Origin: a virus
Lineage: Duplodnaviria; Caudoviricetes
Virus record (IMG/VR): IMGVR_UViG_3300033066_001786
Location: 1-64,000 of that record
Length of the DNA: 64,000 nucleotides
Direction: 5' to 3' (one strand)
Positions 1,251-60,802 of this stretch are shown here, in pieces. The position numbers were made by a program, and so were the translations under genes. A model generated the notes under the pieces. The model had not been told where the DNA came from, did not search any database, and saw only the letters and a program-made list of their open reading frames with translations. The number at the start of each line of letters is the position of its first letter. The first letter of the stretch is position 1.

Positions 1251-1285
1251 TATTTATCAAAAAAACATGGTGCGATTGATAAATA
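1251..1285. promoter_or_regulatory. Divergent pair of putative late promoters (TTGATAAATA)
   Basis: tatttatcaa at 1251-1260 (minus strand) and ttgataaata at 1276-1285 (plus strand) between two divergent genes. Confidence 0.65.
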
Positions 1286-1306: not shown

Positions 1307-1714
1307 ATGTCTGACGAAGAACATTTAAAAATAGAATGTAAAGTACCAATCGAGACTGCAAAGGAAAGAAAAATAAGAATAGATGCAAGTCTTGCATTTC
1401 TTACTTTCTTTATAGTTTTAATGATTATATTGTGTACAGGCGGTGTATATTATTTGTTCATGGGTAAAGCTAACTGGTTATTAATAATTATCAGTACACA
1501 TTTTATGCCATTGTTTATTCCTCCTTTGTTAATGATTGCCTCGTTAGCAGTAGTGCTATCTCTTAGACAAGCATCTGGGCCACTTGAATTTAAAGTTCTT
1601 GGATTTGAAGTAAAAGGTTCTGCAGCACCTATTATAATGTGGGTGTTGATATTTTTGTGCTTTGTATATGCTGTCCAGATGTTTTGGCCGATGTTTACCT
1701 TACCGCCAACGTAA
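1307..1714 (+). CDS. Hypothetical membrane protein (about 3 TM segments)
   Basis: ATG at 1307 after GGGAG; three hydrophobic stretches. Confidence 0.65.
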   Translation: MSDEEHLKIECKVPIETAKERKIRIDASLAFLTFFIVLMIILCTGGVYYLFMGKANWLLIIISTHFMPLFIPPLLMIASLAVVLSLRQASGPLEFKVLGFEVKGSAAPIIMWVLIFLCFVYAVQMFWPMFTLPPT

Positions 1715-1715
1715 T

Positions 1716-1723
1716 GATAAATA
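1716..1723 (+). promoter_or_regulatory. Putative late promoter upstream of the polyamine cluster
   Basis: GATAAATA 27 nt before the speD start; GGAG RBS follows. Confidence 0.55.
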
Positions 1724-1750
1724 AACTATTGTTTATATGGAGTAACAATA

Positions 1751-2101
1751 GTGGCAGATTATAAAGGCAAGCATGTTGTTTGTGATATGATATTAAAAGA
1801 GAATGTTGATATTTCGCAATTAATGGTTTATATTGAGGAATCGATAAAACATGCGAAAATGAACGTAGTTGACGTATTACATAAGCCTTTTGACCCGCAT
1901 GGTGACACAGTAGTTTGGATTTTATCGGAATCACATTTTTCCTTGCACACCTACCCCGAAAGCTGTTATATTAGCGTTGATTGTTATACTTGCGGAGAAG
2001 AAGGTGACCCGCATGCAGCAATTAATTATTTAAGAAAGGTATTACAACCAAAGAACACATCTGAAACTTTTTTATTAAGAGGTATGGTCGGTGAAGATTA
2101 A
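1751..2101 (+). CDS. speD: S-adenosylmethionine decarboxylase proenzyme (pyruvoyl-dependent, class 1b SpeD/SpeH family)
   Basis: Self-cleavage motif LSE|SHFSLHTYPE, DCYTCG, F.PHG.T, 116 aa. Confidence 0.9.
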   Translation: MADYKGKHVVCDMILKENVDISQLMVYIEESIKHAKMNVVDVLHKPFDPHGDTVVWILSESHFSLHTYPESCYISVDCYTCGEEGDPHAAINYLRKVLQPKNTSETFLLRGMVGED

Positions 2102-3203
2102 AGTTTCCCCATCTGAAGAAGAAAACGTCTACAAATCGTATGTAACAGACGAAAGAGCAACTTTAATACTTAATAAAGGCATAGTAGCAGAGCAGTACAA
2201 AAAAATAACAGCAGCACTTCCTAGCGTAACCATGTATTATGCTATTAAGTCTATGCCGGATAAAGAAGTAATTAACACATTATACGAATGCGGATGTAAT
2301 TTTGATGTTGCAACATCAGGCGAAATCGATATCCTTAAAGAGCTATCAGTTGAATCTGAAAAAACTATTCATACGCACCCTATTAAAACTCAATTTGAAA
2401 TAGAAAAAGCAATCGAGTATGGTTGTGAAGTATTTGTAGTTGACAACTTACATGAACTTCTTAAATTTATACCATATAAAGATAAAGTATCGGTTTTGGT
2501 ACGGGTTAGCTTTAGAAGCGCAAATGCAAAGATTGATCTGTCTAAAAAGTTTGGTTGTAATGCAGACAAGATAGAAGAAATGCTTAGTAATGCAAGATCG
2601 CTAGGTATTAAAGTGATAGGCCTTTCGTTTCATGTCGGGTCTCAAAATACAGACCCTTCTATGTATGTTACTGCTATTAGTAAATGTGCAACAGTTTTCG
2701 AAAACTACACAAATTTAAAAGTGTTAGATATTGGCGGAGGGTTCCCTATTGCATACGATGGCGACGATATTAATATTGTTGAGTTTTGTGCGCCAATTAA
2801 TACAGCACTTGAACTAATACGTAAAGATGTAAAGGTAATTGCAGAACCAGGTAGATTTATATCTGGTCCAAGCGTAAAAGCAGTTACTACTATTGTCGGC
2901 AAAGCAATTAGAGATGACCGGGTTTGGTATTATTTAAACGACGGAGTCTACGGTTCTTATAGTGGTACTATTTTTGACCATGTTGCATATCCTATTCAAG
3001 TTTTTAGCGATAGCGACGAACTTCAGAAATGTGTACTTGCAGGCCCAACGTGCGATAGCGTCGATGTTATTGCAGAAGATATAATGCTACCAGATTTAGA
3101 AATAGGCGATATAATTGTAGGACATCAAATGGGGTCGTATACGCATGCGACTACTACGGAATTTAACTGTATTAAAAAGCCGAGGATTATTTATGTCTTA
3201 TAA
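2091..3203 (+). CDS. Ornithine (or lysine/ornithine) decarboxylase, PLP fold-type III
   Basis: YYAIKS (PLP lysine), FDVATSGE, KFG, SFHVGSQ, DIGGGF, EPGRF, DGVYGS, GPTCDS. Confidence 0.9.
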   Translation: MKIKVSPSEEENVYKSYVTDERATLILNKGIVAEQYKKITAALPSVTMYYAIKSMPDKEVINTLYECGCNFDVATSGEIDILKELSVESEKTIHTHPIKTQFEIEKAIEYGCEVFVVDNLHELLKFIPYKDKVSVLVRVSFRSANAKIDLSKKFGCNADKIEEMLSNARSLGIKVIGLSFHVGSQNTDPSMYVTAISKCATVFENYTNLKVLDIGGGFPIAYDGDDINIVEFCAPINTALELIRKDVKVIAEPGRFISGPSVKAVTTIVGKAIRDDRVWYYLNDGVYGSYSGTIFDHVAYPIQVFSDSDELQKCVLAGPTCDSVDVIAEDIMLPDLEIGDIIVGHQMGSYTHATTTEFNCIKKPRIIYVL

Positions 3204-3333
3204 GATATCTTTGTTTTTGTTGCTATTTACGACAATGGTAGGTTGTACAAATAAAACAACATTTGATATTAGGATCGACGAATTATGCAAAGATCCGGCT
3301 AATTTAAAATATAAAGAATGTAAAGGAAAATAA
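3193..3333 (+). CDS. Small putative lipoprotein (46 aa)
   Basis: ATG at 3193 after GAGG; MSYK, hydrophobic core, MVG-C lipobox-like motif. Confidence 0.55.
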   Translation: MSYKISLFLLLFTTMVGCTNKTTFDIRIDELCKDPANLKYKECKGK

Positions 3334-3334
3334 T

Positions 3335-3493
3335 ATGAATAGAAAAGTATGGTTAATAATCGCAGTTGCTAGTTTAAGTATGGCATTATTTGTGCCTGAT
3401 TGGAAAAGCGGAGTAATTGCACAAGAATACAATTACTCGGTTAATTCAACATACGTCGGTTCTAATATTAAAGAAAATTCTACAACTAAATAA
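3335..3493 (+). CDS. Small secreted/membrane peptide (52 aa)
   Basis: MNRKVWLIIAVASLSMALFV...; fills the gap exactly, and its TAA overlaps the next ATG. Confidence 0.55.
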   Translation: MNRKVWLIIAVASLSMALFVPDWKSGVIAQEYNYSVNSTYVGSNIKENSTTK

Positions 3494-4545
3494 TGGGCAA
3501 AATAACTCTTGCTAATTGGTACGGGGAATCTTTTATTAAAAAAGAGAGGGTTATGTTTGACCCTTTTTCCCCTTATTTGAATTGTTACGGTCACGTCGAT
3601 CAATTCGAAAACAACGATGCAAATGTAATTTTTAATAAAGACGAACCGGGTATTTTAGTAGTAGAAGACGGGAAAAATGCTAATATCGTTCGCAATGCAT
3701 GCTCTCATCGTCAAGCAATAATTGCAAGCGATACTTGCAAAAGGAAATCATTAAGGTGCCCTGCACACGCATGGAATTATGATTTATCTGGTACATTATT
3801 GCATACACCGTTATATCAAGGCGATTGCGGTAAATCTCTCAAAAAAACACCGTTAGATAAAATTAAAGGGTTGATGTATAGCGGAAATACAGAGTCAGTT
3901 GTTGATTTTTATAGAAATTTTTATCTAGCTGAGGATCTTTTTAATTTCGAAGATTTGAATTTGTACTCGAGTCAAACAGAGACTTACGATTTTAACTGGA
4001 AAACATTCTTGGATGTATATCTAGAGTTGTACCATGTTAAACCTGTTCACCCTGGACTTGGTAATTTTGTTGACGGTGTTAATTATAAGTGGTATTTTGG
4101 CAAAGGGTGGTCGGCACAAGTAATGCCCCTTAGCACTAAAAAATGCCCTTTTAGTTCGCATTGGAAAAACTATCAAGACATAGTTTTTGCAGATAAAGAA
4201 CTAGTAGAACAGAATATTGCTGCTATATGGGTGTTATTATATCCAGGTGTTATGTTAGAATGGTACCCGCATGCAAAAGTAATTTCTACACTTAAACCTG
4301 CACCAAATGGCAAATGCCTAAACAAAGTAGAAGTGTACTCTAATAGCAACACCTCAACTTTAGAACTTTTAACTAGTGCATATAATGAAAGTGCAAACGA
4401 AGATGCAAGTGCATGTTTAGGCATAGAACAAGGAAGAAAGATAATGTGGGATGCAGAAGAATACGTTGACTACTCTAAGACAGTATACGTAGATAAACAC
4501 GAAGATGGGATCCCACATTTTTATAATTGGTTAGCTAATCGTTAG
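3493..4545 (+). CDS. Rieske non-heme iron oxygenase, putrescine 2-hydroxylase-like
   Basis: Rieske CSH...CPAH ligands; mononuclear Fe region NWKTFLDVYLELYHVKPVHPGLGNFV; AIWVLLYPGVMLEWYPH; distal NED; C-terminal EDGIPHFYNW. Confidence 0.8.
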   Translation: MGKITLANWYGESFIKKERVMFDPFSPYLNCYGHVDQFENNDANVIFNKDEPGILVVEDGKNANIVRNACSHRQAIIASDTCKRKSLRCPAHAWNYDLSGTLLHTPLYQGDCGKSLKKTPLDKIKGLMYSGNTESVVDFYRNFYLAEDLFNFEDLNLYSSQTETYDFNWKTFLDVYLELYHVKPVHPGLGNFVDGVNYKWYFGKGWSAQVMPLSTKKCPFSSHWKNYQDIVFADKELVEQNIAAIWVLLYPGVMLEWYPHAKVISTLKPAPNGKCLNKVEVYSNSNTSTLELLTSAYNESANEDASACLGIEQGRKIMWDAEEYVDYSKTVYVDKHEDGIPHFYNWLANR

Positions 4546-4582
4546 ATTTCTGATAAATATAAGAAATGACTAGGCGGTTACT

Positions 4583-4762
4583 ATGTTTTCTAGTATCAAA
4601 CACCATGTTAGGGATATTATATTAAGCGAGTGTGACGATTTAATAATCGATATACTTAAAGAGAAGCTCGATATATCTGTTACTAGGGAAAAAGATAATA
4701 TTGTTTTTGTAGTAAAGTTTGGCGGTGTACTAGTTAAACAAGATTCGGTTTCTGTTAAATAA
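4583..4762 (+). CDS. Hypothetical protein (59 aa)
   Basis: Below the ORF-track cutoff; GATAAATA at 4552-4559, AGGCGG RBS, stop overlaps the next ATG. Confidence 0.6.
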   Translation: MFSSIKHHVRDIILSECDDLIIDILKEKLDISVTREKDNIVFVVKFGGVLVKQDSVSVK

Positions 4763-5571
4763 TGTTTTATAGTTTATTACAAGAAAAAACATCACACGAA
4801 ATAGGCTTAGATTTAATATCTACAGTTGTTGCTGATTATATTGTAAATGATTATATACCGTCTACTAAGAAACTAATAAGATCTAAAAACACAGTAACTG
4901 ATAGTAAAAATCCATATTTAGAATTTTGTTTTTTGTCCGGCGAAAAACCAAAAAACGGTTATTTAGGCGGAGAAGAAATAGACGTTAATCAATACACTTT
5001 ATTCGTGTTTGATACCGGGAAAGTTGGTAATAATATACCCGATAACATACGGTCCAAAATAGATTCAGATGTGTACGAATCTATTAAGAACTGCAAAGTA
5101 TGTTTAGAGCCGATATCTAGCGGCATAGACGGATATTTTAATAAAACAGATAAAACTGTTGCTCTTAATATACTAACAATGAATAACAATAACAAATGGT
5201 TAAAATCAAAAATTAAAACAAATTTAGTACATGAATTTAGGCATTTTTTAGATTCTAAGATGTCCAAAGGAAAAGCTAAATTTCACTATTACGATGATAC
5301 ACAAGAAACCGTAACAGATGCTTACTTGAAGAATCCGGCTGAAGCTAATGCTAGATTTTCTCAAGCCACGTCCGATATGATTAGTAAATTAAAAAGAGAA
5401 AAGAACAACACAGCCTTTACTAAAGAAGAATTTATAAAGTATGTAGATCTTCTTTTTCGAAGGCATAACATCAAAGTAAAAGGTCAAATATTAACACACA
5501 ACAATAAGCAATATTCTAGGTTTTTTAATAGGGCTTTAAATTTATACGACGAGATTAGAGGAACAAAATGA
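4762..5571 (+). CDS. Putative zincin-like (HExxH) metalloprotein
   Basis: LVHEFRHFLD plus downstream Y..NPAEANAR. Confidence 0.55.
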   Translation: MFYSLLQEKTSHEIGLDLISTVVADYIVNDYIPSTKKLIRSKNTVTDSKNPYLEFCFLSGEKPKNGYLGGEEIDVNQYTLFVFDTGKVGNNIPDNIRSKIDSDVYESIKNCKVCLEPISSGIDGYFNKTDKTVALNILTMNNNNKWLKSKIKTNLVHEFRHFLDSKMSKGKAKFHYYDDTQETVTDAYLKNPAEANARFSQATSDMISKLKREKNNTAFTKEEFIKYVDLLFRRHNIKVKGQILTHNNKQYSRFFNRALNLYDEIRGTK

Positions 5572-15610: not shown

Positions 15611-18424
15611 ATGGCAAATCTTGTTTCGCCTGGCACTAGTGTCAGCGTAATCAACGAAAGTTTTTATACTTCTGCAGGTCCAGGTACTGTCCCTCTAGTA
15701 ATTATTGCAACAGATGATAACAAATTAGATGCATCAGGTACACAGATAGCAGAAGGAACTAAACCAGAAAATGCAGGTAAAGTTTACACTATTACTTCAC
15801 AGAGAGAGTTGCTTCAGACTTTCGGTGTACCACACTTCCATTCTTTTCCGGGTCATCCTACTAGCGAGTACGGTCTTTTAGCTGCACATTCTTATTTAGG
15901 TGTGTCGAATAAAATTAACCTTTTAAGAGCAGATATTAATTTAGGCGACTTAGATCCTACTACAGAACCACCTGCAAGAGACCCGGACGTCGGAACATAT
16001 TGGTTAAAAGGCGAGGAAATAGATGCCGCAGTATACGAATGGGACGGTGCTAAATGGGTTAAACAATCAGTATTACCTATACAAGGTAGTCAAGTAATCG
16101 AAATAGACAACGGTGTAGATCCTGTTTATTTAAGTTTAGTAGATGTGCCCTCGTCATATAAATATGCAGTGAGTTGTAGCAACACTGAGATAGACGGTTC
16201 GATTACTAATTTGTTTACTAACATGATATGGGTTAGACAATCAGGTAAATGGGTATGGCTCTTCGATAATACAATTCCTAATCAGTCCTTATATTTTTTA
16301 AAGGATTTCCAATATTCTAAAGTTTACCCTACAAAAAGAAATGACGGTATTGCAGCTTTACAATCGGGCGACATATGGATTAGCATCGACGAACAGAAGT
16401 ATCCTGTTTATTATTTCCAAGATTCGGTTACTCGTTTTGTAAAATGCGACATGTATTACAATATGACACAGAACGAAATGGTTGAAACTCAAGGCTACTC
16501 TACACTTTCTCATACTGACATATTTGTTGAGAACGGCGATTTATTTGCATATGCTACTGGACCTAAAGGTGCGGCAGTTAATATAATGAGAACATGGGTA
16601 GCAGGTAATGTTGTACCTGAAGAATTAAGCTTTGTTCCTTTTGTTCCGGGCGCAGTAATCCCTAGTATAGCACTTAGAGCATACCGAGTAGTAGCAGGCG
16701 GCACCGGGACAGCCGATATTATTAATCTTACATTTACTAACAAGACAATAGAAGAAATAATCGTAACAGTTAATAGTAATGCTAATGCTATCAATTTTGG
16801 TATTTCTCTTAGTTTAGACTTAAATGGATATGTTGTTGCAAGATCTCTCTTAAGAAAAACATTCGTACTAGATGGTCTTGAATTTCATAACGCATCCGTA
16901 GGCGGCTTTTCTAAAAGCGGCATATCGATTGTATGCTCTTCAACTGAACCGACAGGGTCTATACAGGACGGTTCAGTATGGTACAACGATGATATCGTAG
17001 TTGATGTATTGCAAAATAGCGGAACAAACTGGGATAATTTTGGATTTGTTATATATGCACAGTATAGTAAACCAACAGGCGTAAGTTTAAACGCAGGCGA
17101 TTTGTGGTTAGATACTAGCGACCTCGTAAACTATCCTTTGTTTAAAAGGTGGTCAGGCAGTGCATGGGTTACTATAGATAATAGCGATTCTAGAACACCG
17201 AACGGTATTATTTTTGCTGATGCAAGACCTTCGGCAACGTACGGTACTTCACTAGGCGTGAACAACGGCGGCGGCAATGGAGACCCTGACTTAGATATAG
17301 ATGCACCAAATCCTTTATTTTATCCTGCAGGTTTATTATTGTTTAATGCGCGAGCTTCGAGCAGATGCGTAAAAACATTTGTCGAACCGTATATTTACGA
17401 AGGCGATACAGCAGCAACATATAACGGGTCAACAGGTCGCTGGGTTTCTCAGAATTTGCTCAAAGAAGACGGATCACCTTACATGGGAGAAGAATCTGTT
17501 CGCAGAAAAATCTCATTAAGTATGCAAGCTGCAATTCAAAGCAACGAATATATTCGTTCTGAGGATTTGTATTTTAATTTAATTGCTGCACCGGGATGCA
17601 TCGAGTTAATAGACGAAATGGTAGCTTTAAATATAGATCGTAAAGAAACTGCGGTAGTTATAGGTGATACACCTTTTACTCTTAAGCCGGATGCAACTTC
17701 TTTACAAAGCTGGTTAACCAACGAAGCCAACCAGACAACAAATAATAAGTACGGTCTTGTAACTGCAAGTGACAACTTGGCATTATATTATCCTTCTTGT
17801 GGTTTGACTACTAATGTTGATGGTTCTGATGTTATTGTTCCGTCTTCTCATGCATTACTTCGCACGTATGCATTGAACGACCAAATGGCTTACCCATGGT
17901 TTGCACCTGCAGGTTTACAACGAGGAGTTGTTTCTAACTTATCAAGTGTTGGTTATGTAGACGATAACACAGGAGAATACAAAAGCGTATCTTTAAACGA
18001 AGGTCAACGCGATGTATTGTATTTAAATAACGTTAATCCTGTTCGTTCTATACCTAACAAAGGCATTATTGTATGGGGACAAAAAACAAGAGCACCTTCG
18101 GAATCTGCACTTGATAGAGTTAATGTTGCACGTTTAGTTAACTACATTAGATATCAAGCAGAAAAAATATCTCAGCCGTTTTTGTTTGAGCCTAACGACG
18201 ATACTACTCGTTTGTTCGTTACAAAAGCATATGAAACATTCTTAAGCGAATTAGTTCTTTTACGGGGTTTGACGGATTATGCAGTTCAGTGTAATAAATC
18301 AAACAACACTGAATTGAGAATTGATCGAAACGAATTATGGGTAGATTTATATATATTGCCAGAAAAAGCAATTGAGTTTATTTATATTCCAATTCGTGTA
18401 CGAGGTAATGTACAAGGTGTGTAA
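15611..18424 (+). CDS. Tail sheath protein with large insertion domains
   Basis: LVSPG N-terminus, YPWFAPAG..RG, LY...VNP, WGQKT, SALDRVNVARL, EFIYIP; GATAAATA at 15573-15580. Confidence 0.95.
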   Translation: MANLVSPGTSVSVINESFYTSAGPGTVPLVIIATDDNKLDASGTQIAEGTKPENAGKVYTITSQRELLQTFGVPHFHSFPGHPTSEYGLLAAHSYLGVSNKINLLRADINLGDLDPTTEPPARDPDVGTYWLKGEEIDAAVYEWDGAKWVKQSVLPIQGSQVIEIDNGVDPVYLSLVDVPSSYKYAVSCSNTEIDGSITNLFTNMIWVRQSGKWVWLFDNTIPNQSLYFLKDFQYSKVYPTKRNDGIAALQSGDIWISIDEQKYPVYYFQDSVTRFVKCDMYYNMTQNEMVETQGYSTLSHTDIFVENGDLFAYATGPKGAAVNIMRTWVAGNVVPEELSFVPFVPGAVIPSIALRAYRVVAGGTGTADIINLTFTNKTIEEIIVTVNSNANAINFGISLSLDLNGYVVARSLLRKTFVLDGLEFHNASVGGFSKSGISIVCSSTEPTGSIQDGSVWYNDDIVVDVLQNSGTNWDNFGFVIYAQYSKPTGVSLNAGDLWLDTSDLVNYPLFKRWSGSAWVTIDNSDSRTPNGIIFADARPSATYGTSLGVNNGGGNGDPDLDIDAPNPLFYPAGLLLFNARASSRCVKTFVEPYIYEGDTAATYNGSTGRWVSQNLLKEDGSPYMGEESVRRKISLSMQAAIQSNEYIRSEDLYFNLIAAPGCIELIDEMVALNIDRKETAVVIGDTPFTLKPDATSLQSWLTNEANQTTNNKYGLVTASDNLALYYPSCGLTTNVDGSDVIVPSSHALLRTYALNDQMAYPWFAPAGLQRGVVSNLSSVGYVDDNTGEYKSVSLNEGQRDVLYLNNVNPVRSIPNKGIIVWGQKTRAPSESALDRVNVARLVNYIRYQAEKISQPFLFEPNDDTTRLFVTKAYETFLSELVLLRGLTDYAVQCNKSNNTELRIDRNELWVDLYILPEKAIEFIYIPIRVRGNVQGV

Positions 18425-23986: not shown

Positions 23987-24340
23987 ATGGACGACTTAAT
24001 TAAGAAACCTGGACAATTAGTATCCTATACACCTAAAGAAATTGAAGAACTTAAAGCTTGTGCAGACCCATCGTCTGGCCCTTTATACTTTATGGAAAAT
24101 TTTATATATGTCCAACATCCAGTAGATGGTCGCATAAAATTTAACCCCTACCCTTTCCAACGAGAACTTATATACAACTATCATAATTTCAAGAGCAATA
24201 TTTGTTTAGTATCGAGGCAAAATGGTAAATGTTTAGTGGGCAACGAAATGATAAATATAAGAAACAAAAAAACAGGTGAGATTAAAAAAGTCACCTTTAA
24301 AGAATTTAAAGAGATTGTTAAAGATGGAAAAACAGGATAA
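23987..24340 (+). CDS. terL: Terminase large subunit N-extein (81 aa) fused to split-intein N-fragment (36 aa)
   Basis: gp17-like P.YF..NF.Y..HP..G...F..YPFQ...SRQNGK, then C(1)LVGNEMINIR... starting at 24230. Confidence 0.9.
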   Translation: MDDLIKKPGQLVSYTPKEIEELKACADPSSGPLYFMENFIYVQHPVDGRIKFNPYPFQRELIYNYHNFKSNICLVSRQNGKCLVGNEMINIRNKKTGEIKKVTFKEFKEIVKDGKTG

Positions 24341-25767
24341 AAGATGCAAAACTTGCGATACTGTTATTTGTAATCCAATTAGAAATCAATTTTTTTGCAA
24401 AATAGAATGTAAGCCTTCGTTTCGTAGGTCGAAGCCCACAGTTGAGTTAAATTGTAACTATTGCGGTAATGTATTTGAGACTAACAGAAAGCGGGTTACT
24501 TGTTGTTCTAAAGAGTGCAGAAGGTTATATAATCAAGATGTATATCGTATAAGACATAGCGAAGGAAAACCTTCAATAATTTGTAAGGTTTGTAATATGC
24601 CATTTCGATCACTTATGGGACATCTTTCGAAGAAGCATAATATTACGTCGCAAGAGTACAAAAAGTTATATCCAGGCGAAATAGTAATAGCCGATGATAT
24701 TAAAGAGATGTTTTCTAATAATATGAAAGGGGAAAAGAACCCAGGTTATCAACATGGTGGTACGATGTCGCCATGGTCAAACAAGAATAAATATTTCAGT
24801 GCAGAACAAATAGAAGCATCGAAACAAAAAGCAATGGCAAACATCATTAATGGTACAATGTTAGAATATTATACTAACAAAGGCCATTCTATGGAAGAGG
24901 CAATAAAATTACGTTCTGATAGGCAGCGTACATTTACTTTGGCAAAGTGTATAGTAAAACACGGAGAAGAAGAAGGTAAAAAAGTGCATCGTGCCCGCCA
25001 GGAAAAATGGGCTAAAAGTTATAAAAAAAGTAATTTTTCAAAAATATCACAGGAATTATTTTGGGGAATTATTGCACAGGCAGGGATGAAAGAATCGTAT
25101 TTTTTTGCAACTAACAATAAAGGTGAAAAATCTACAGATTCGATTAACTACGAAACAGTGCTTACCTTAAATGACGGGGTAATAAGACCGGACTTCGTAT
25201 GTGTAGATAAAAAATGCATAATAGAATTTGACGGTGACTACTGGCATAGCGAAGCCAGGGGAAACCAAAATAGAGATGCAGAAAGGGATAAAAAAGCAAC
25301 AGATTCCGGATATAACGTTTTACGTATAAAAGAAAGAGATTATAGGAAAGACAAAAAATTTGAAATACAAAAGTGTATTTCTTTTTTAAACGGAAATTTT
25401 TAAGAAAATGTTAAGTAATACAACATATAGAAAGTTCACTGAAGTTATAGATGTTAGTGATTGGGAAGTAGAAACACAAGACGGATTTGTTGATGTTCTA
25501 AATTTCAACACAACTATACATTACGGTGTGTGGTTAATTGAGTTAGATAACGGCCTTACATTAAAAGGTGCAGACACACACATATTAATACAAGATAATG
25601 GGCAAGAAGTATATATAAAAGATTCTCTTGGGTGTTTTATTAATACTAAGTACGGACCATCTAAAGTAACAAATGTTGTTGATTTAGGTTACGAAGAAGA
25701 GATGTATGATTTAACAATAGATAGCAAAGACCACACATATTATACAAGTGATATATTAAGTCATAAT
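24230..25767 (+). mobile_element. Split intein plus homing endonuclease cassette interrupting terL
   Basis: IntN 24230-24337, endonuclease 24324-25403, IntC 25408-25767 ending SHN before Thr+1. Confidence 0.85.
24324..25403 (+). CDS. Free-standing Vsr-like (EDxHD/DUF559-type) homing endonuclease with Zn-finger and NUMOD-like motifs
   Basis: CxxC clusters, CKVC...HLSKKH, GEKNP, PDF.....IIEFDGDYWH...RD..RD.....GY.VLRI; lies between the two intein halves; ATG 24324 preferred over GTG 24276. Confidence 0.85.
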   Translation: MEKQDKRCKTCDTVICNPIRNQFFCKIECKPSFRRSKPTVELNCNYCGNVFETNRKRVTCCSKECRRLYNQDVYRIRHSEGKPSIICKVCNMPFRSLMGHLSKKHNITSQEYKKLYPGEIVIADDIKEMFSNNMKGEKNPGYQHGGTMSPWSNKNKYFSAEQIEASKQKAMANIINGTMLEYYTNKGHSMEEAIKLRSDRQRTFTLAKCIVKHGEEEGKKVHRARQEKWAKSYKKSNFSKISQELFWGIIAQAGMKESYFFATNNKGEKSTDSINYETVLTLNDGVIRPDFVCVDKKCIIEFDGDYWHSEARGNQNRDAERDKKATDSGYNVLRIKERDYRKDKKFEIQKCISFLNGNF

Positions 25768-27093
25768 ACAGTTTGCGCCGCCTGCTATTTATTGTGGTAT
25801 GCAATGTTTGTACCAGATTCGACTATTTTAGTTGCTTCTAAATCTGGTGCAGATGCTAAAGAGATTATGATACGTATTAGATATGCATATGAAGAATTAC
25901 CAAATCATATTAAAGCAGGTGCAAGAGACTATAACAAGCAATCGTTAACGTTCGACAACGGTTCTCGAATAGTTTCGGCGACTACGACAGAGAACACTGG
26001 CCGAGGTATGTCTATTTCTTTAGTTTACTTGGATGAATTCGCATTTGTCCCCCCTAGAGTAGCTAAAGAACTGTGGACCTCATTGTCCCCTACTTTGTCA
26101 ACGGGCGGTCGATGCATAATGACAAGTACACCTAGTAGCGACGAAGATCAGTTTGCAGAATTATGGTTTGATGCTAACAAAAGGATAGACGAATACGGCA
26201 ATGAAAAAGAAGTTGGTAAAAACGGATTTAGGCCGTTTTTTGCAACATGGCGAGATAACCCTACTAGGGGAGAAGAATGGGCAGCAGAAGAAGAAGGTAA
26301 AATTGGCACTGATAGATTCGGAAGAGAACACGAATGTAAATTCTTGATATTCCAAGAGACTTTAGTTAATTCGTCTAAGCTTGCTAAAATCGACGGCTTG
26401 CCTATTATACAAAAAACAGGAGAAATACGATGGTACAAACGTATCGACCAAAATTGTACGTACATTGTATCTCTTGACCCTGCTATGGGGACAGGTGGAG
26501 ATAATGCTGCTATTCAAGTGTACGAGCTCCCCTCGTTGATACAAGTTGCCGAGTGGCAACATAACAAGACAAACATTGAAGGTCAAATGCGTATATTACG
26601 TCAAATATTGCAGGATATCTATTCTCAAGGTCAACCTGAGATATATTGGTCAGTTGAAACTAATTCGTTAGGCGAAGCTGCACTTGTTATTATACGTGAA
26701 ACAGGTGAAGAATATTTCCCAGGTACAATGTTACATGAACCTAAAACAGGGGAAGGTAAACGTAGACGCGGGTTTACAACTACCAATAGAAGCAAGCTCG
26801 AAGCTTGTGCTAAGTTAAAAACTTTAATAGAGTCTGAAAAATTAACAATATCATCTAAGAACTTAATAAGTGAATTAAAAACCTTTATTGCTAAAGGTAA
26901 TTCATATGAGGGTAGATCCGGTTGTACAGACGACCTCGTGTCGGCTACATTACTTGCAGTTAGAATGCTCCAAGTTGTTGCAGCATGGGATGATAATTGT
27001 GCTGCTAAGTTATCCTCTACTATATTAGATGGTGACGAGGGTTATGAAGACGATGACGACTATGAGGCTCCAATGCCTGCAGCGTTTTGTTAA
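25408..27093 (+). CDS. terL: Split-intein C-fragment (120 aa) fused to terminase large subunit C-extein (441 aa)
   Basis: ADTH block B, MYDLTI...HTYY block F, ILSHN|T; then Walker B LVYLDEFAF, TSTP, nuclease SLDPAMG...DN and DDLV. Confidence 0.9.
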   Translation: MLSNTTYRKFTEVIDVSDWEVETQDGFVDVLNFNTTIHYGVWLIELDNGLTLKGADTHILIQDNGQEVYIKDSLGCFINTKYGPSKVTNVVDLGYEEEMYDLTIDSKDHTYYTSDILSHNTVCAACYLLWYAMFVPDSTILVASKSGADAKEIMIRIRYAYEELPNHIKAGARDYNKQSLTFDNGSRIVSATTTENTGRGMSISLVYLDEFAFVPPRVAKELWTSLSPTLSTGGRCIMTSTPSSDEDQFAELWFDANKRIDEYGNEKEVGKNGFRPFFATWRDNPTRGEEWAAEEEGKIGTDRFGREHECKFLIFQETLVNSSKLAKIDGLPIIQKTGEIRWYKRIDQNCTYIVSLDPAMGTGGDNAAIQVYELPSLIQVAEWQHNKTNIEGQMRILRQILQDIYSQGQPEIYWSVETNSLGEAALVIIRETGEEYFPGTMLHEPKTGEGKRRRGFTTTNRSKLEACAKLKTLIESEKLTISSKNLISELKTFIAKGNSYEGRSGCTDDLVSATLLAVRMLQVVAAWDDNCAAKLSSTILDGDEGYEDDDDYEAPMPAAFC

Positions 27094-60106: not shown

Positions 60107-60802
60107 ATGTCATTTAATAAAACAAAAACTGACCCAGAGTTAGGAAGAAAAGTTCACGCACATTTAAGATCTTTGGGATTAGAAACCCCAGTAATAGACA
60201 GCAAATTAAATGTTGATGCAAAAGATAAAATCGAAAGCATCGAGAAACATATGACTAAAATTTTAGAAACTATGGGTATGGATTTATCCGACGATTCGTT
60301 AATCGAAACACCTAAGCGTGTTGCAAAGATGATGGTGTTAGAACAAGGGTGGGGATTAAAACCTGAGAATTTCCCGAAATGTACTGTAGTTGATAATAAA
60401 ATGAACTACGACGAGATGGTAGTCGAGAAGTGCTCAGTAAACTCAATCTGCGAACATCATTGGATTTTCTTCGGTTCCATACATAGTCCGGAATTGGGCG
60501 CGTGGATAGCGTATATCCCTAAGAAAAAAGTAGTAGGATTAAGTAAGCTAGGTAGGGTCATGGAGTATTTCTCTGCAAGGCCGCAAATACAAGAAAGACT
60601 TACTCAGCAAGTATTAGAAACTTTAAAATTTATTTTAGAAACAGAAGATGTTGCCGTTGTTATAAAAGCCCAGCATTTTTGTGTTCTTACTCGCGGAGTT
60701 GAAGACGCACAAGCAAACACTATTACAAGTGCGTTATCGGGCTCGTTTAAAACAGATTTACAAACTAGGTCAGAGTTTATGGCCCACATACGGAAAGGCT
60801 AA
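60107..60802 (+). CDS. folE: GTP cyclohydrolase I
   Basis: GLETP, DDSL.ETP.RVAKM, S.CEHH, GLSKL.R, RPQ.QERLT, H.CV..RGV. Confidence 0.95.
   Translation: MSFNKTKTDPELGRKVHAHLRSLGLETPVIDSKLNVDAKDKIESIEKHMTKILETMGMDLSDDSLIETPKRVAKMMVLEQGWGLKPENFPKCTVVDNKMNYDEMVVEKCSVNSICEHHWIFFGSIHSPELGAWIAYIPKKKVVGLSKLGRVMEYFSARPQIQERLTQQVLETLKFILETEDVAVVIKAQHFCVLTRGVEDAQANTITSALSGSFKTDLQTRSEFMAHIRKG

Follow-up and report, generated by a model that had tools for sequence, protein, structure and literature searches.

Polyamine metabolism in viruses has recently been mapped in a survey of phage enzymes (Li, Liang, Baniasadi, Phillips, and Michael, PNAS 2023; PMC9992855), which described pyridoxal phosphate (PLP)-dependent ornithine decarboxylases (ODC), pyruvoyl ornithine and arginine decarboxylases (ADC) derived from SpeD, S-adenosylmethionine decarboxylases (AdoMetDC), spermidine and homospermidine synthases, and an acetyltransferase, among others. 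The resulting map covers synthesis, acetylation, and deacetylation, and carbon hydroxylation has no place in it. In bacteria, 2-hydroxyputrescine is considered a marker polyamine of betaproteobacteria (PMC10385936, PMC7857480), and both papers cite Li et al. (2016, ACS Chem Biol 11:2782) for the Bordetella and Ralstonia enzymes that hydroxylate putrescine. In the synthesis of alcaligin, the C-hydroxylation is ascribed to the Fe–S protein AlcE (PMC3510459). Among alpha-only Rieske monooxygenases, CntA and stachydrine demethylase act on small cationic amines. The putrescine 2-hydroxylase itself is reportedly a Rieske-type non-haem-iron protein in both Bordetella bronchiseptica and Ralstonia solanacearum. 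The locus described here lies in the first 64,000 nucleotides of the viral record IMGVR_UViG_3300033066_001786 (the window in what follows), where a predicted polyamine operon at 1716-4545 combines genes of the kinds known from phages with a Rieske gene of the betaproteobacterial type. On balance, it is probable that this operon is an auxiliary polyamine module with which the phage makes and hydroxylates its own diamine, the product being 2-hydroxyputrescine as in betaproteobacteria.

The operon consists of five plus-strand genes, coding for SpeD, a fold-III decarboxylase, peptides of 46 and 52 amino acids (aa), and a 350-aa Rieske oxygenase. Their junctions are overlaps of 11, 11, and 1 nt or a gap of a single nucleotide, which is consistent with translational coupling. 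The original prediction, made from the letters of the DNA, had proposed a coupled run of this kind ending in a complete Rieske gene, and the gene order, the families, and the coordinates have been confirmed. The first gene (1751..2101, plus strand) codes for a 116-aa homologue of the class-1b pyruvoyl AdoMetDC (Pfam AdoMet_dc, TIGR03330); the second (2091..3203, plus strand) for a 370-aa homologue of the PLP-dependent fold-III (alanine-racemase-fold) lysine/ornithine decarboxylases (L/ODC), with Orn_Arg_deC_N and the C-terminal domain; and the last (3493..4545, plus strand) for an alpha-only Rieske non-haem-iron oxygenase of the putative putrescine 2-hydroxylase family (Pfam Rieske and Ring_hydroxyl_A).

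The Rieske protein is most similar to a betaproteobacterial family of 365-375 aa, which it matches at E ~1e-50, being ~30-37% identical to the bacterial proteins. Among the best 80 loci of 583 confirmed genome matches to this family, the titles are either betaproteobacterial or unresolved, and no other group is named. Of 151 genomes sampled from the corresponding GTDB order, 130 (~86%) have a family match (E <= 1e-40), and only one of these holds a second copy; one count in this tally is the unpublished genome G027, on which the tally does not depend. The bacterial gene adjoins xseB(-ispA-dxs), in divergent orientation, in 63 of the 80 loci (L007-L086), and we take the Ralstonia hydroxylase gene to be this xseB-adjacent one. 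In the exception, genome G134, the second family copy (62% identity to the query homologue) occurs beside the housekeeping copy, within an alcaligin-type cluster (L178:2990-10147) that codes for a Lys/Orn N-monooxygenase, a major facilitator superfamily (MFS) protein, a GNAT acyltransferase, an IucA/IucC-FhuF protein, a 408-aa protein of unknown function, and the Rieske protein. This order (alcA-like, MFS, alcB-like, alcC-like, unknown, Rieske) is the alcaligin layout. A further AlcE candidate was sought in Bordetella-labelled metagenome-assembled genomes and discarded, since the second match there is a 159-aa fragment outside any siderophore cluster. As a separate observation, the family is covered by no curated NCBIfam model, and the AlcE-like copy matches only GbcA, at 66 bits. 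Because of its distribution, the AlcE-type cluster paralogue, and the literature on AlcE and 2-hydroxyputrescine, the betaproteobacterial family can be regarded as very probably that of the putrescine 2-hydroxylase.

Phylogenetic analysis places the bacterial family and all of the viral sequences in one clade, with a Shimodaira–Hasegawa-like approximate likelihood ratio test (SH-aLRT) support of 100, apart from the six outgroups (CntA, a CntA-like paralogue, and four other Rieske paralogues from Cupriavidus and Burkholderia); this tree and its companion were both built with a "quick" method and include long branches. Three lineages are recognized within the family. One holds the bacterial sequences, with the AlcE-like copy among them, another is made up of 13 IMG/VR sequences, and the third, also viral, is formed by five IMG/VR sequences together with the window protein and its three closest relatives on a long branch. 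These relatives (L001, L003, and L005; 35-41% identity) come from metagenome contigs with phage hallmark genes, two of which carry a Gp23 major capsid gene and one of which reaches 334 kb. The similarity scores point in the same direction, with E ~1e-50 to the betaproteobacterial family and 1e-10 to CntA, and the GbcA model gives 33.5 bits against a cut-off of 670. The window protein is thus closer to the putrescine-hydroxylase-type family than to choline, carnitine, or aromatic oxygenases, as had been predicted, and it groups with none of the latter. The sequence blocks on which that prediction was based (NWKTF..VYLE.YHV..HPGLG, AIW..YP..M.EWYPH, and EDG..HF) turn out to be invariant or near-invariant columns that the protein has in common with the betaproteobacterial family.

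The ligands of the [2Fe-2S] cluster (C70, H72, C89, and H92) are present in the window protein and invariant in the family alignment (Pfam Rieske, 2.4e-11), and the mononuclear iron site (H181, H186, and D304) and the bridging E178 align with H208, H213, D323, and E205 of CntA. When the pocket residues of CntA (PMC7948474) were mapped onto the family by sequence alignment, Y176 (equivalent to the cation-pi Tyr203 of CntA), E256 (invariant, at the position of CntA Asn270), and Y297 were seen to be retained in the window protein and throughout the family. An AlphaFold model of the protein (predicted local distance difference test score, pLDDT, of 82) finds its best structural matches in CntA (Foldseek E 1e-15, TM ~0.7, at ~17% sequence identity) and stachydrine demethylase, and a look-up in the ESM Atlas returned generic names only. 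With CntA, GbcA, Stc2, and choline monooxygenase (group V), the window protein shares the alpha3-type architecture, a bridging Glu rather than Asp, and an aromatic residue at the cation-pi position; it differs from CntA and GbcA in belonging to a separate clade, in having no CntB/GbcB-type reductase gene nearby, and in carrying Glu256 where CntA has Asn. The features shared with putrescine 2-hydroxylase and AlcE include, besides the clade and the blocks near the iron site, an alpha-only protein of ~350-370 aa with no adjacent reductase, and the window gene is linked to that of a predicted putrescine-forming enzyme.

The putrescine-forming step would be carried out by the PLP enzyme. Its two domains are recognized by Pfam (Orn_Arg_deC_N, PF02784, 2.5e-50; PF00278, 8.6e-20), it falls under the cut-off of the lysA model (166.7 vs 297.9), its motifs are those of the eukaryote-like/bacterial ODC group and not of DAP decarboxylase, and it shares ~50% identity with bacterial proteins called ornithine decarboxylase. 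Among solved structures, it comes closest to the L/ODC of Vibrio vulnificus (2PLJ, E 1.7e-111; see also 2PLK), to which it is ~52% identical over its full length and with which the active-site motifs YAIKS, NDGVYGS, and GPTCDSVD align; the window enzyme differs in being phage-encoded and slightly shorter (370 aa). The assignment as an ornithine decarboxylase stands as far as the fold-III ODC group is concerned, and is to be widened in that the closest solved relative is a dual enzyme, so that lysine use may apply as well. Putrescine is accordingly the likeliest predicted product, with cadaverine as a possible one. The SpeD protein exceeds the cut-off of the AdoMetDC equivalog TIGR03330 (95.4 vs 75.65 bits; Pfam AdoMet_dc, 8e-24) and keeps the processing site ...LSESHFSLHTYPE, in which the Glu-Ser (seSH) aligns with that of the AdoMetDC in PDB 2III. 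In isolated phages, its closest matches are proteins annotated as AdoMetDC from cyanophages and from phages of Pseudomonas, Bacillus, Thermus, and Croceibacter, and several phage lineages among them have experimentally validated AdoMetDCs (PMC9992855). Comparison with the neofunctionalised clade represented by the SpeD homologue of Pelagibacter phage HTVC201P revealed no detectable relation. Judged by these features, the window SpeD is a canonical-type AdoMetDC homologue.

The occurrence of the Rieske gene in other phages has also been analyzed. Family members are present in at least 32 further contigs, namely 29 IMG/VR viral loci (L094-L122) and three metagenome contigs with phage hallmarks; the GC content of these contigs is 33-52% and their length reaches 334 kb. 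The bacterial xseB-ispA-dxs neighbours occur at none of these 32 loci, and a search with the Rieske protein against isolated phages returned only bacterial-type CntA in mislabelled Acinetobacter records. Synteny of ODC and Rieske genes in other phages had been proposed as a check, and for the PLP enzyme it was not seen: neither an ODC nor a window-type SpeD lies within 8-10 kb of the Rieske gene at any of the 29 IMG/VR loci or in the three sister contigs, no PLP ODC was found anywhere in the 29 other Rieske-bearing IMG/VR records, and no Rieske record shares a contig with any of 38 viral ODC loci. Single-sequence scans of viral contigs for the ODC and the SpeD yielded nothing beyond this phage itself and a small number of relatives. 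Given that the other Rieske-bearing records contain no PLP ODC, the PLP-ODC/Rieske arrangement is specific to this phage lineage.

A link is seen with a different type of decarboxylase. A SpeD-family gene is found in four of the 29 IMG/VR Rieske records, and three of the four belong to the five-member sister clade of the window lineage, whose other two records are fragments (15-19% complete). The three sister-clade SpeD homologues share 65-72% identity among themselves and 37% with their HTVC201P counterpart, and they carry ...LATSHASIH... where the canonical protein has ...SESH.... The HTVC201P protein has been characterized as a pyruvoyl arginine decarboxylase, and homologues from freshwater myoviruses as pyruvoyl ornithine decarboxylases (PMC9992855); the sister-clade proteins belong to a clade described in that work. 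In IMGVR_UViG_3300042691_045951 (L182:1456-2974), the HTVC201P-type SpeD gene overlaps the start of the Rieske gene by 8 nt, and the pair looks like a minimal two-gene decarboxylase–hydroxylase module. Two kinds of predicted diamine-forming decarboxylase are, then, coupled to a viral Rieske gene, and the second link is independent of the first. This recurrence constitutes the best contextual evidence that the substrate of the Rieske enzyme is the product of a decarboxylation.

The pathway proposed for the window would operate late in infection, when the operon would be transcribed from the promoter discussed below. The PLP enzyme would convert ornithine (perhaps lysine) into putrescine (possibly cadaverine), and the Rieske protein, as a trimer, would then hydroxylate this diamine on carbon, giving 2-hydroxyputrescine. 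The electrons would come from a host reductase; no phage ferredoxin or reductase has been found in the 113-kb record, and the bacterial gene also stands alone. In parallel, SpeD would provide decarboxylated S-adenosylmethionine, with which a spermidine synthase of the host, or one coded for in the missing part of the phage genome, could extend the diamine. The likely purpose would be to maintain a host-type polyamine supply during the replication, translation, and packaging of a genome of ~350 kb, and the polyamines might serve as counter-ions in packaging, support translation, or imitate host-type pools.

Compared with the phage enzymes described so far (PMC9992855), the operon shares the SpeD and ODC genes, which are sometimes clustered in other phages too, and the logic of boosting or reshaping host polyamines; it differs in adding C-hydroxylation, by joining a canonical SpeD and a PLP L/ODC with a Rieske protein. 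The original prediction knew of no viral polyamine hydroxylase clustered with ODC and SpeD genes. No viral polyamine hydroxylase appears in the searchable literature, where a search combining Rieske, phage, and putrescine yielded no relevant paper, and the 2023 survey includes no hydroxylase, oxygenase, or Rieske protein. What is new would be the combination of a known enzyme family with known viral polyamine genes, adding a reaction type to viral polyamine metabolism. If this is true, the hydroxylated form matters enough during infection for a virus to encode the hydroxylase and, in this phage, also the synthesis of its substrate. The module would offer a compact system for probing the role of 2-hydroxyputrescine, which is physiologically still unclear; the diverged phage clades would represent a natural set of variants of a C–H-activating amine hydroxylase; and the gene could serve to mark the host range of jumbo and T4-like phages from freshwater that are uncultured. 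A bolder version, put forward only tentatively and rather doubtful as a whole, is that at least two phage lineages captured the betaproteobacterial putrescine 2-hydroxylase and that one of them wired it repeatedly to non-homologous diamine-forming decarboxylases (the PLP L/ODC and the pyruvoyl SpeD-derived ODC/ADC). The result would be self-contained viral pathways for C-hydroxylated polyamines, in which the change from Asp to Leu in the pocket of the window clade may lead to a novel compound, for instance hydroxycadaverine or hydroxyspermidine, that is packed with the DNA in the capsid.

Several observations weigh against the production of 2-hydroxyputrescine by this operon. The function of the bacterial family has been set by proxies for the characterised Bordetella and Ralstonia sequences, namely distribution, synteny, and the AlcE-type paralogue. 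The search for a host through relatives of the ClpA protein of the phage identified no organism, and two genes that the pathway might call for, those of a ferredoxin or reductase and of a spermidine synthase (PF01564), do not appear in the 113-kb source record, which is itself ~32% complete; in particular, no Fer2 or NAD_binding_1 domain is present in it. Spermidine synthase is the obligatory partner of a canonical SpeD, and neofunctionalised SpeD proteins are flagged by its absence (PMC10407285); here, the host may supply SpeE. The protein itself has diverged considerably, as it sits on a very long branch within a phage-only subclade and keeps 66 of the 111 positions (59%) that are at least 97% conserved among the bacterial members, compared with 44 in CntA and 71-102 in the other viral members. 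One of the 45 positions changed is the near-invariant Asp179, two residues before the first iron-binding His, which is replaced by Leu in the window clade and by Asn in the sister clade; moreover, in a weakly aligned region, a Leu takes the place of the Glu that most family members have opposite CntA Tyr315. The pocket may consequently bind something other than a free diamine. In the three closest relatives, the 8 kb on either side of the Rieske gene contain no decarboxylase, the neighbours being genes for NAD salvage (in L005, NAMPT and an NMNAT-Nudix protein), kinase-like proteins (AAA_28/AAA_18), YqeY, and 6-pyruvoyl-tetrahydropterin synthase (PTPS), as well as DUF2828.

One rival explanation is that the Rieske protein of the phage subclade has switched its substrate, which is possible and yet falls well short of probable. 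In that case, it would act on another small cationic compound (such as agmatine, a quaternary amine, or a polyamine that is longer or N-substituted) or on a SpeD-dependent product in place of free putrescine, so that the operon would still be amine-related and no 2-hydroxyputrescine would be formed. The long branch, the loss of family-invariant positions, and the missing decarboxylases on either side of the gene in the closest relatives are all compatible with this, as are the more hydrophobic residues seen at the positions lining the CntA pocket. The replacement of Asp179 by Leu beside the iron site leaves room for an altered substrate, and the wide variation at this position (D, N, L, A, G, I, V, and others) across 50%-identity representatives of the wider family suggests several specificities. 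However, the change is not disqualifying, because one bacterial orthologue at the conserved housekeeping position also has Leu179, and both the cation-pi Tyr and the invariant Glu256 have been retained. The switch also fits poorly with the predicted co-transcription of the gene with that of a diamine-forming decarboxylase, and with the finding that the sister clade has its Rieske gene translationally coupled to one of the pyruvoyl ODC/ADC type.

A second explanation, which is improbable, is that the genes are accidental neighbours in a hot spot for moron or auxiliary metabolic genes within the tail-fibre module, and that the role of the Rieske protein lies outside polyamines, for example in pterin or 7-deazaguanine metabolism. 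Of the 32 further viral or phage loci, 15 have a PTPS/QueD-like gene within a few kb of the Rieske gene and 10 have FolE (GTP cyclohydrolase I), and the phage studied here codes for a FolE and a QueE-like protein as well. In addition, the Rieske gene is accompanied by neither SpeD nor ODC in records that are complete or nearly so, G216 among them; a complete 165-kb record of this sort would fit an unrelated role, and would equally fit a host that already makes putrescine, in which a phage would need the hydroxylase only. Against accidental clustering, the FolE gene lies 56 kb from the Rieske gene in the window, whereas the decarboxylases are in the same overlapping operon, and the AlcE link and the betaproteobacterial distribution of the family point to putrescine. 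We know of no role for a Rieske oxygenase in the synthesis of pterins or preQ0.

Finally, it is very improbable that the module supplies a (hydroxy)diamine for covalent attachment to the phage DNA, an idea raised in the original prediction by comparison with the alpha-putrescinylthymine of phiW-14: that phage does use putrescine for thymine hypermodification in a host containing 2-hydroxyputrescine (PMC5977210) and the operon is apparently expressed late, but no support for a DNA-modifying amine has been found here, the ThyA of the phage scores as canonical (TIGR03284, 244 bits vs a cut-off of 108), which argues weakly against a 5-hydroxymethyl-dU route, and no kinase or pyrophosphorylase of that pathway lies beside the operon, again a weak point with only 32% of the genome covered.

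The timing of expression is suggested by an octamer, GATAAATA, located at 1716..1723 (plus strand), 27 nt before the start of speD, where it is the sole promoter-like element ahead of the operon. The window contains 26 copies of this motif (7.4 expected), 24 of them on the plus strand, and the 113-kb record has 33 on the plus and four on the minus strand. Most copies lie 4-46 nt 5' of start codons, among them those of the sheath, tail-fibre, gp13-like, baseplate-wedge, and virion-protein genes and that of a 203-aa open reading frame (ORF) just upstream of the tube gene; none is found in the 50 nt ahead of the UvsX, helicase, DnaB, NrdA/B, ThyA, or FolE genes. The operon was correctly placed behind a motif enriched on the coding strand and shared with the sheath gene; near the tube gene, the copy is the one ahead of the 203-aa ORF. 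The T4 late promoter, which we take to be TATAAATA, agrees with the octamer at seven of eight bases. The motif therefore combines the features of T4-type late promoters: an octamer like TATAAATA, a short distance 5' of virion genes, and enrichment on the coding strand. Sigma-70-like sites are no more frequent than shuffled sequence would predict (19, against 25.3 expected), and no convincing terminator was seen within the operon. Since the motif precedes virion genes and the operon alike, late expression is a reasonable expectation, and the five genes are probably transcribed as one unit late in infection.

Other copies of the octamer delimit the locus. One at 4552..4559 (plus strand), 23 nt before the next ORF (59 aa), marks the downstream edge of the operon, and another at 1278..1285 (plus strand) lies upstream of the gene for a 135-aa predicted multi-pass membrane protein (1307..1714, plus strand), which is directly 5' of the operon and conserved with it in L090-L092. 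On the minus strand, the copy at 1251-1258 points towards the divergent tail-fibre/collar gene, and the two opposed copies, 20 nt apart (window 1251-1285), look like a divergent late promoter pair. Within the operon, the 46-aa peptide (3193..3333, plus strand) has a hydrophobic N-terminus ending in a lipobox-like ...TTMVG/C and is identical in L090-L092; it is a probable small lipoprotein on the basis of this segment, and the longer reading frame has no Pfam match. The 52-aa peptide (3335..3493, plus strand), also without a Pfam match, starts with a hydrophobic signal or anchor segment and is identical in L090-L093. Just 3' of the operon, a 269-aa protein (4762-5571) conserved with it in other samples carries an HEFRH (HExxH-like) motif; its identity as a spermidine synthase was considered and ruled out, as it has that motif and no Pfam match.

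The operon is set in a tail-fibre module, with a minus-strand collar/fibre gene on one side and the gene for a 1260-aa fibre protein on the other. The phage has been recovered almost unchanged from several samples; a nucleotide search with the operon against isolated phages gave no match. The source record is a viral sequence of 113 kb whose completeness of ~32% (CheckV) implies a genome size of roughly 350 kb. Its gene set includes the tail sheath (15611-18424), the tube protein, tail fibres, a gp32-like single-stranded DNA-binding protein, UvsX, helicases, NrdA/B, ThyA, and FolE, and the phage is a T4-like or jumbo myovirus with a very large genome. No tRNA genes were found in the 64-kb window. 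The large terminase gene is interrupted by an HNH/homing endonuclease: the region at 23987-27093 is split, with a 375-aa HNH-like ORF (24276-25403) directly before the TerL ORF (25408-27093). A full-length ClpA homologue of 737 aa (genome C1:82620-84833) shows ~55-62% identity to many metagenomic ClpA proteins. The FolE gene is located at 60107-60802 of the window and its product scores above the equivalog cut-off, and another phage protein (genome C1:99523-100449) has an N-terminus like that of QueE, the radical-SAM 7-carboxy-7-deazaguanine synthase; together, the two proteins suggest a 7-deazaguanine pathway in the phage.

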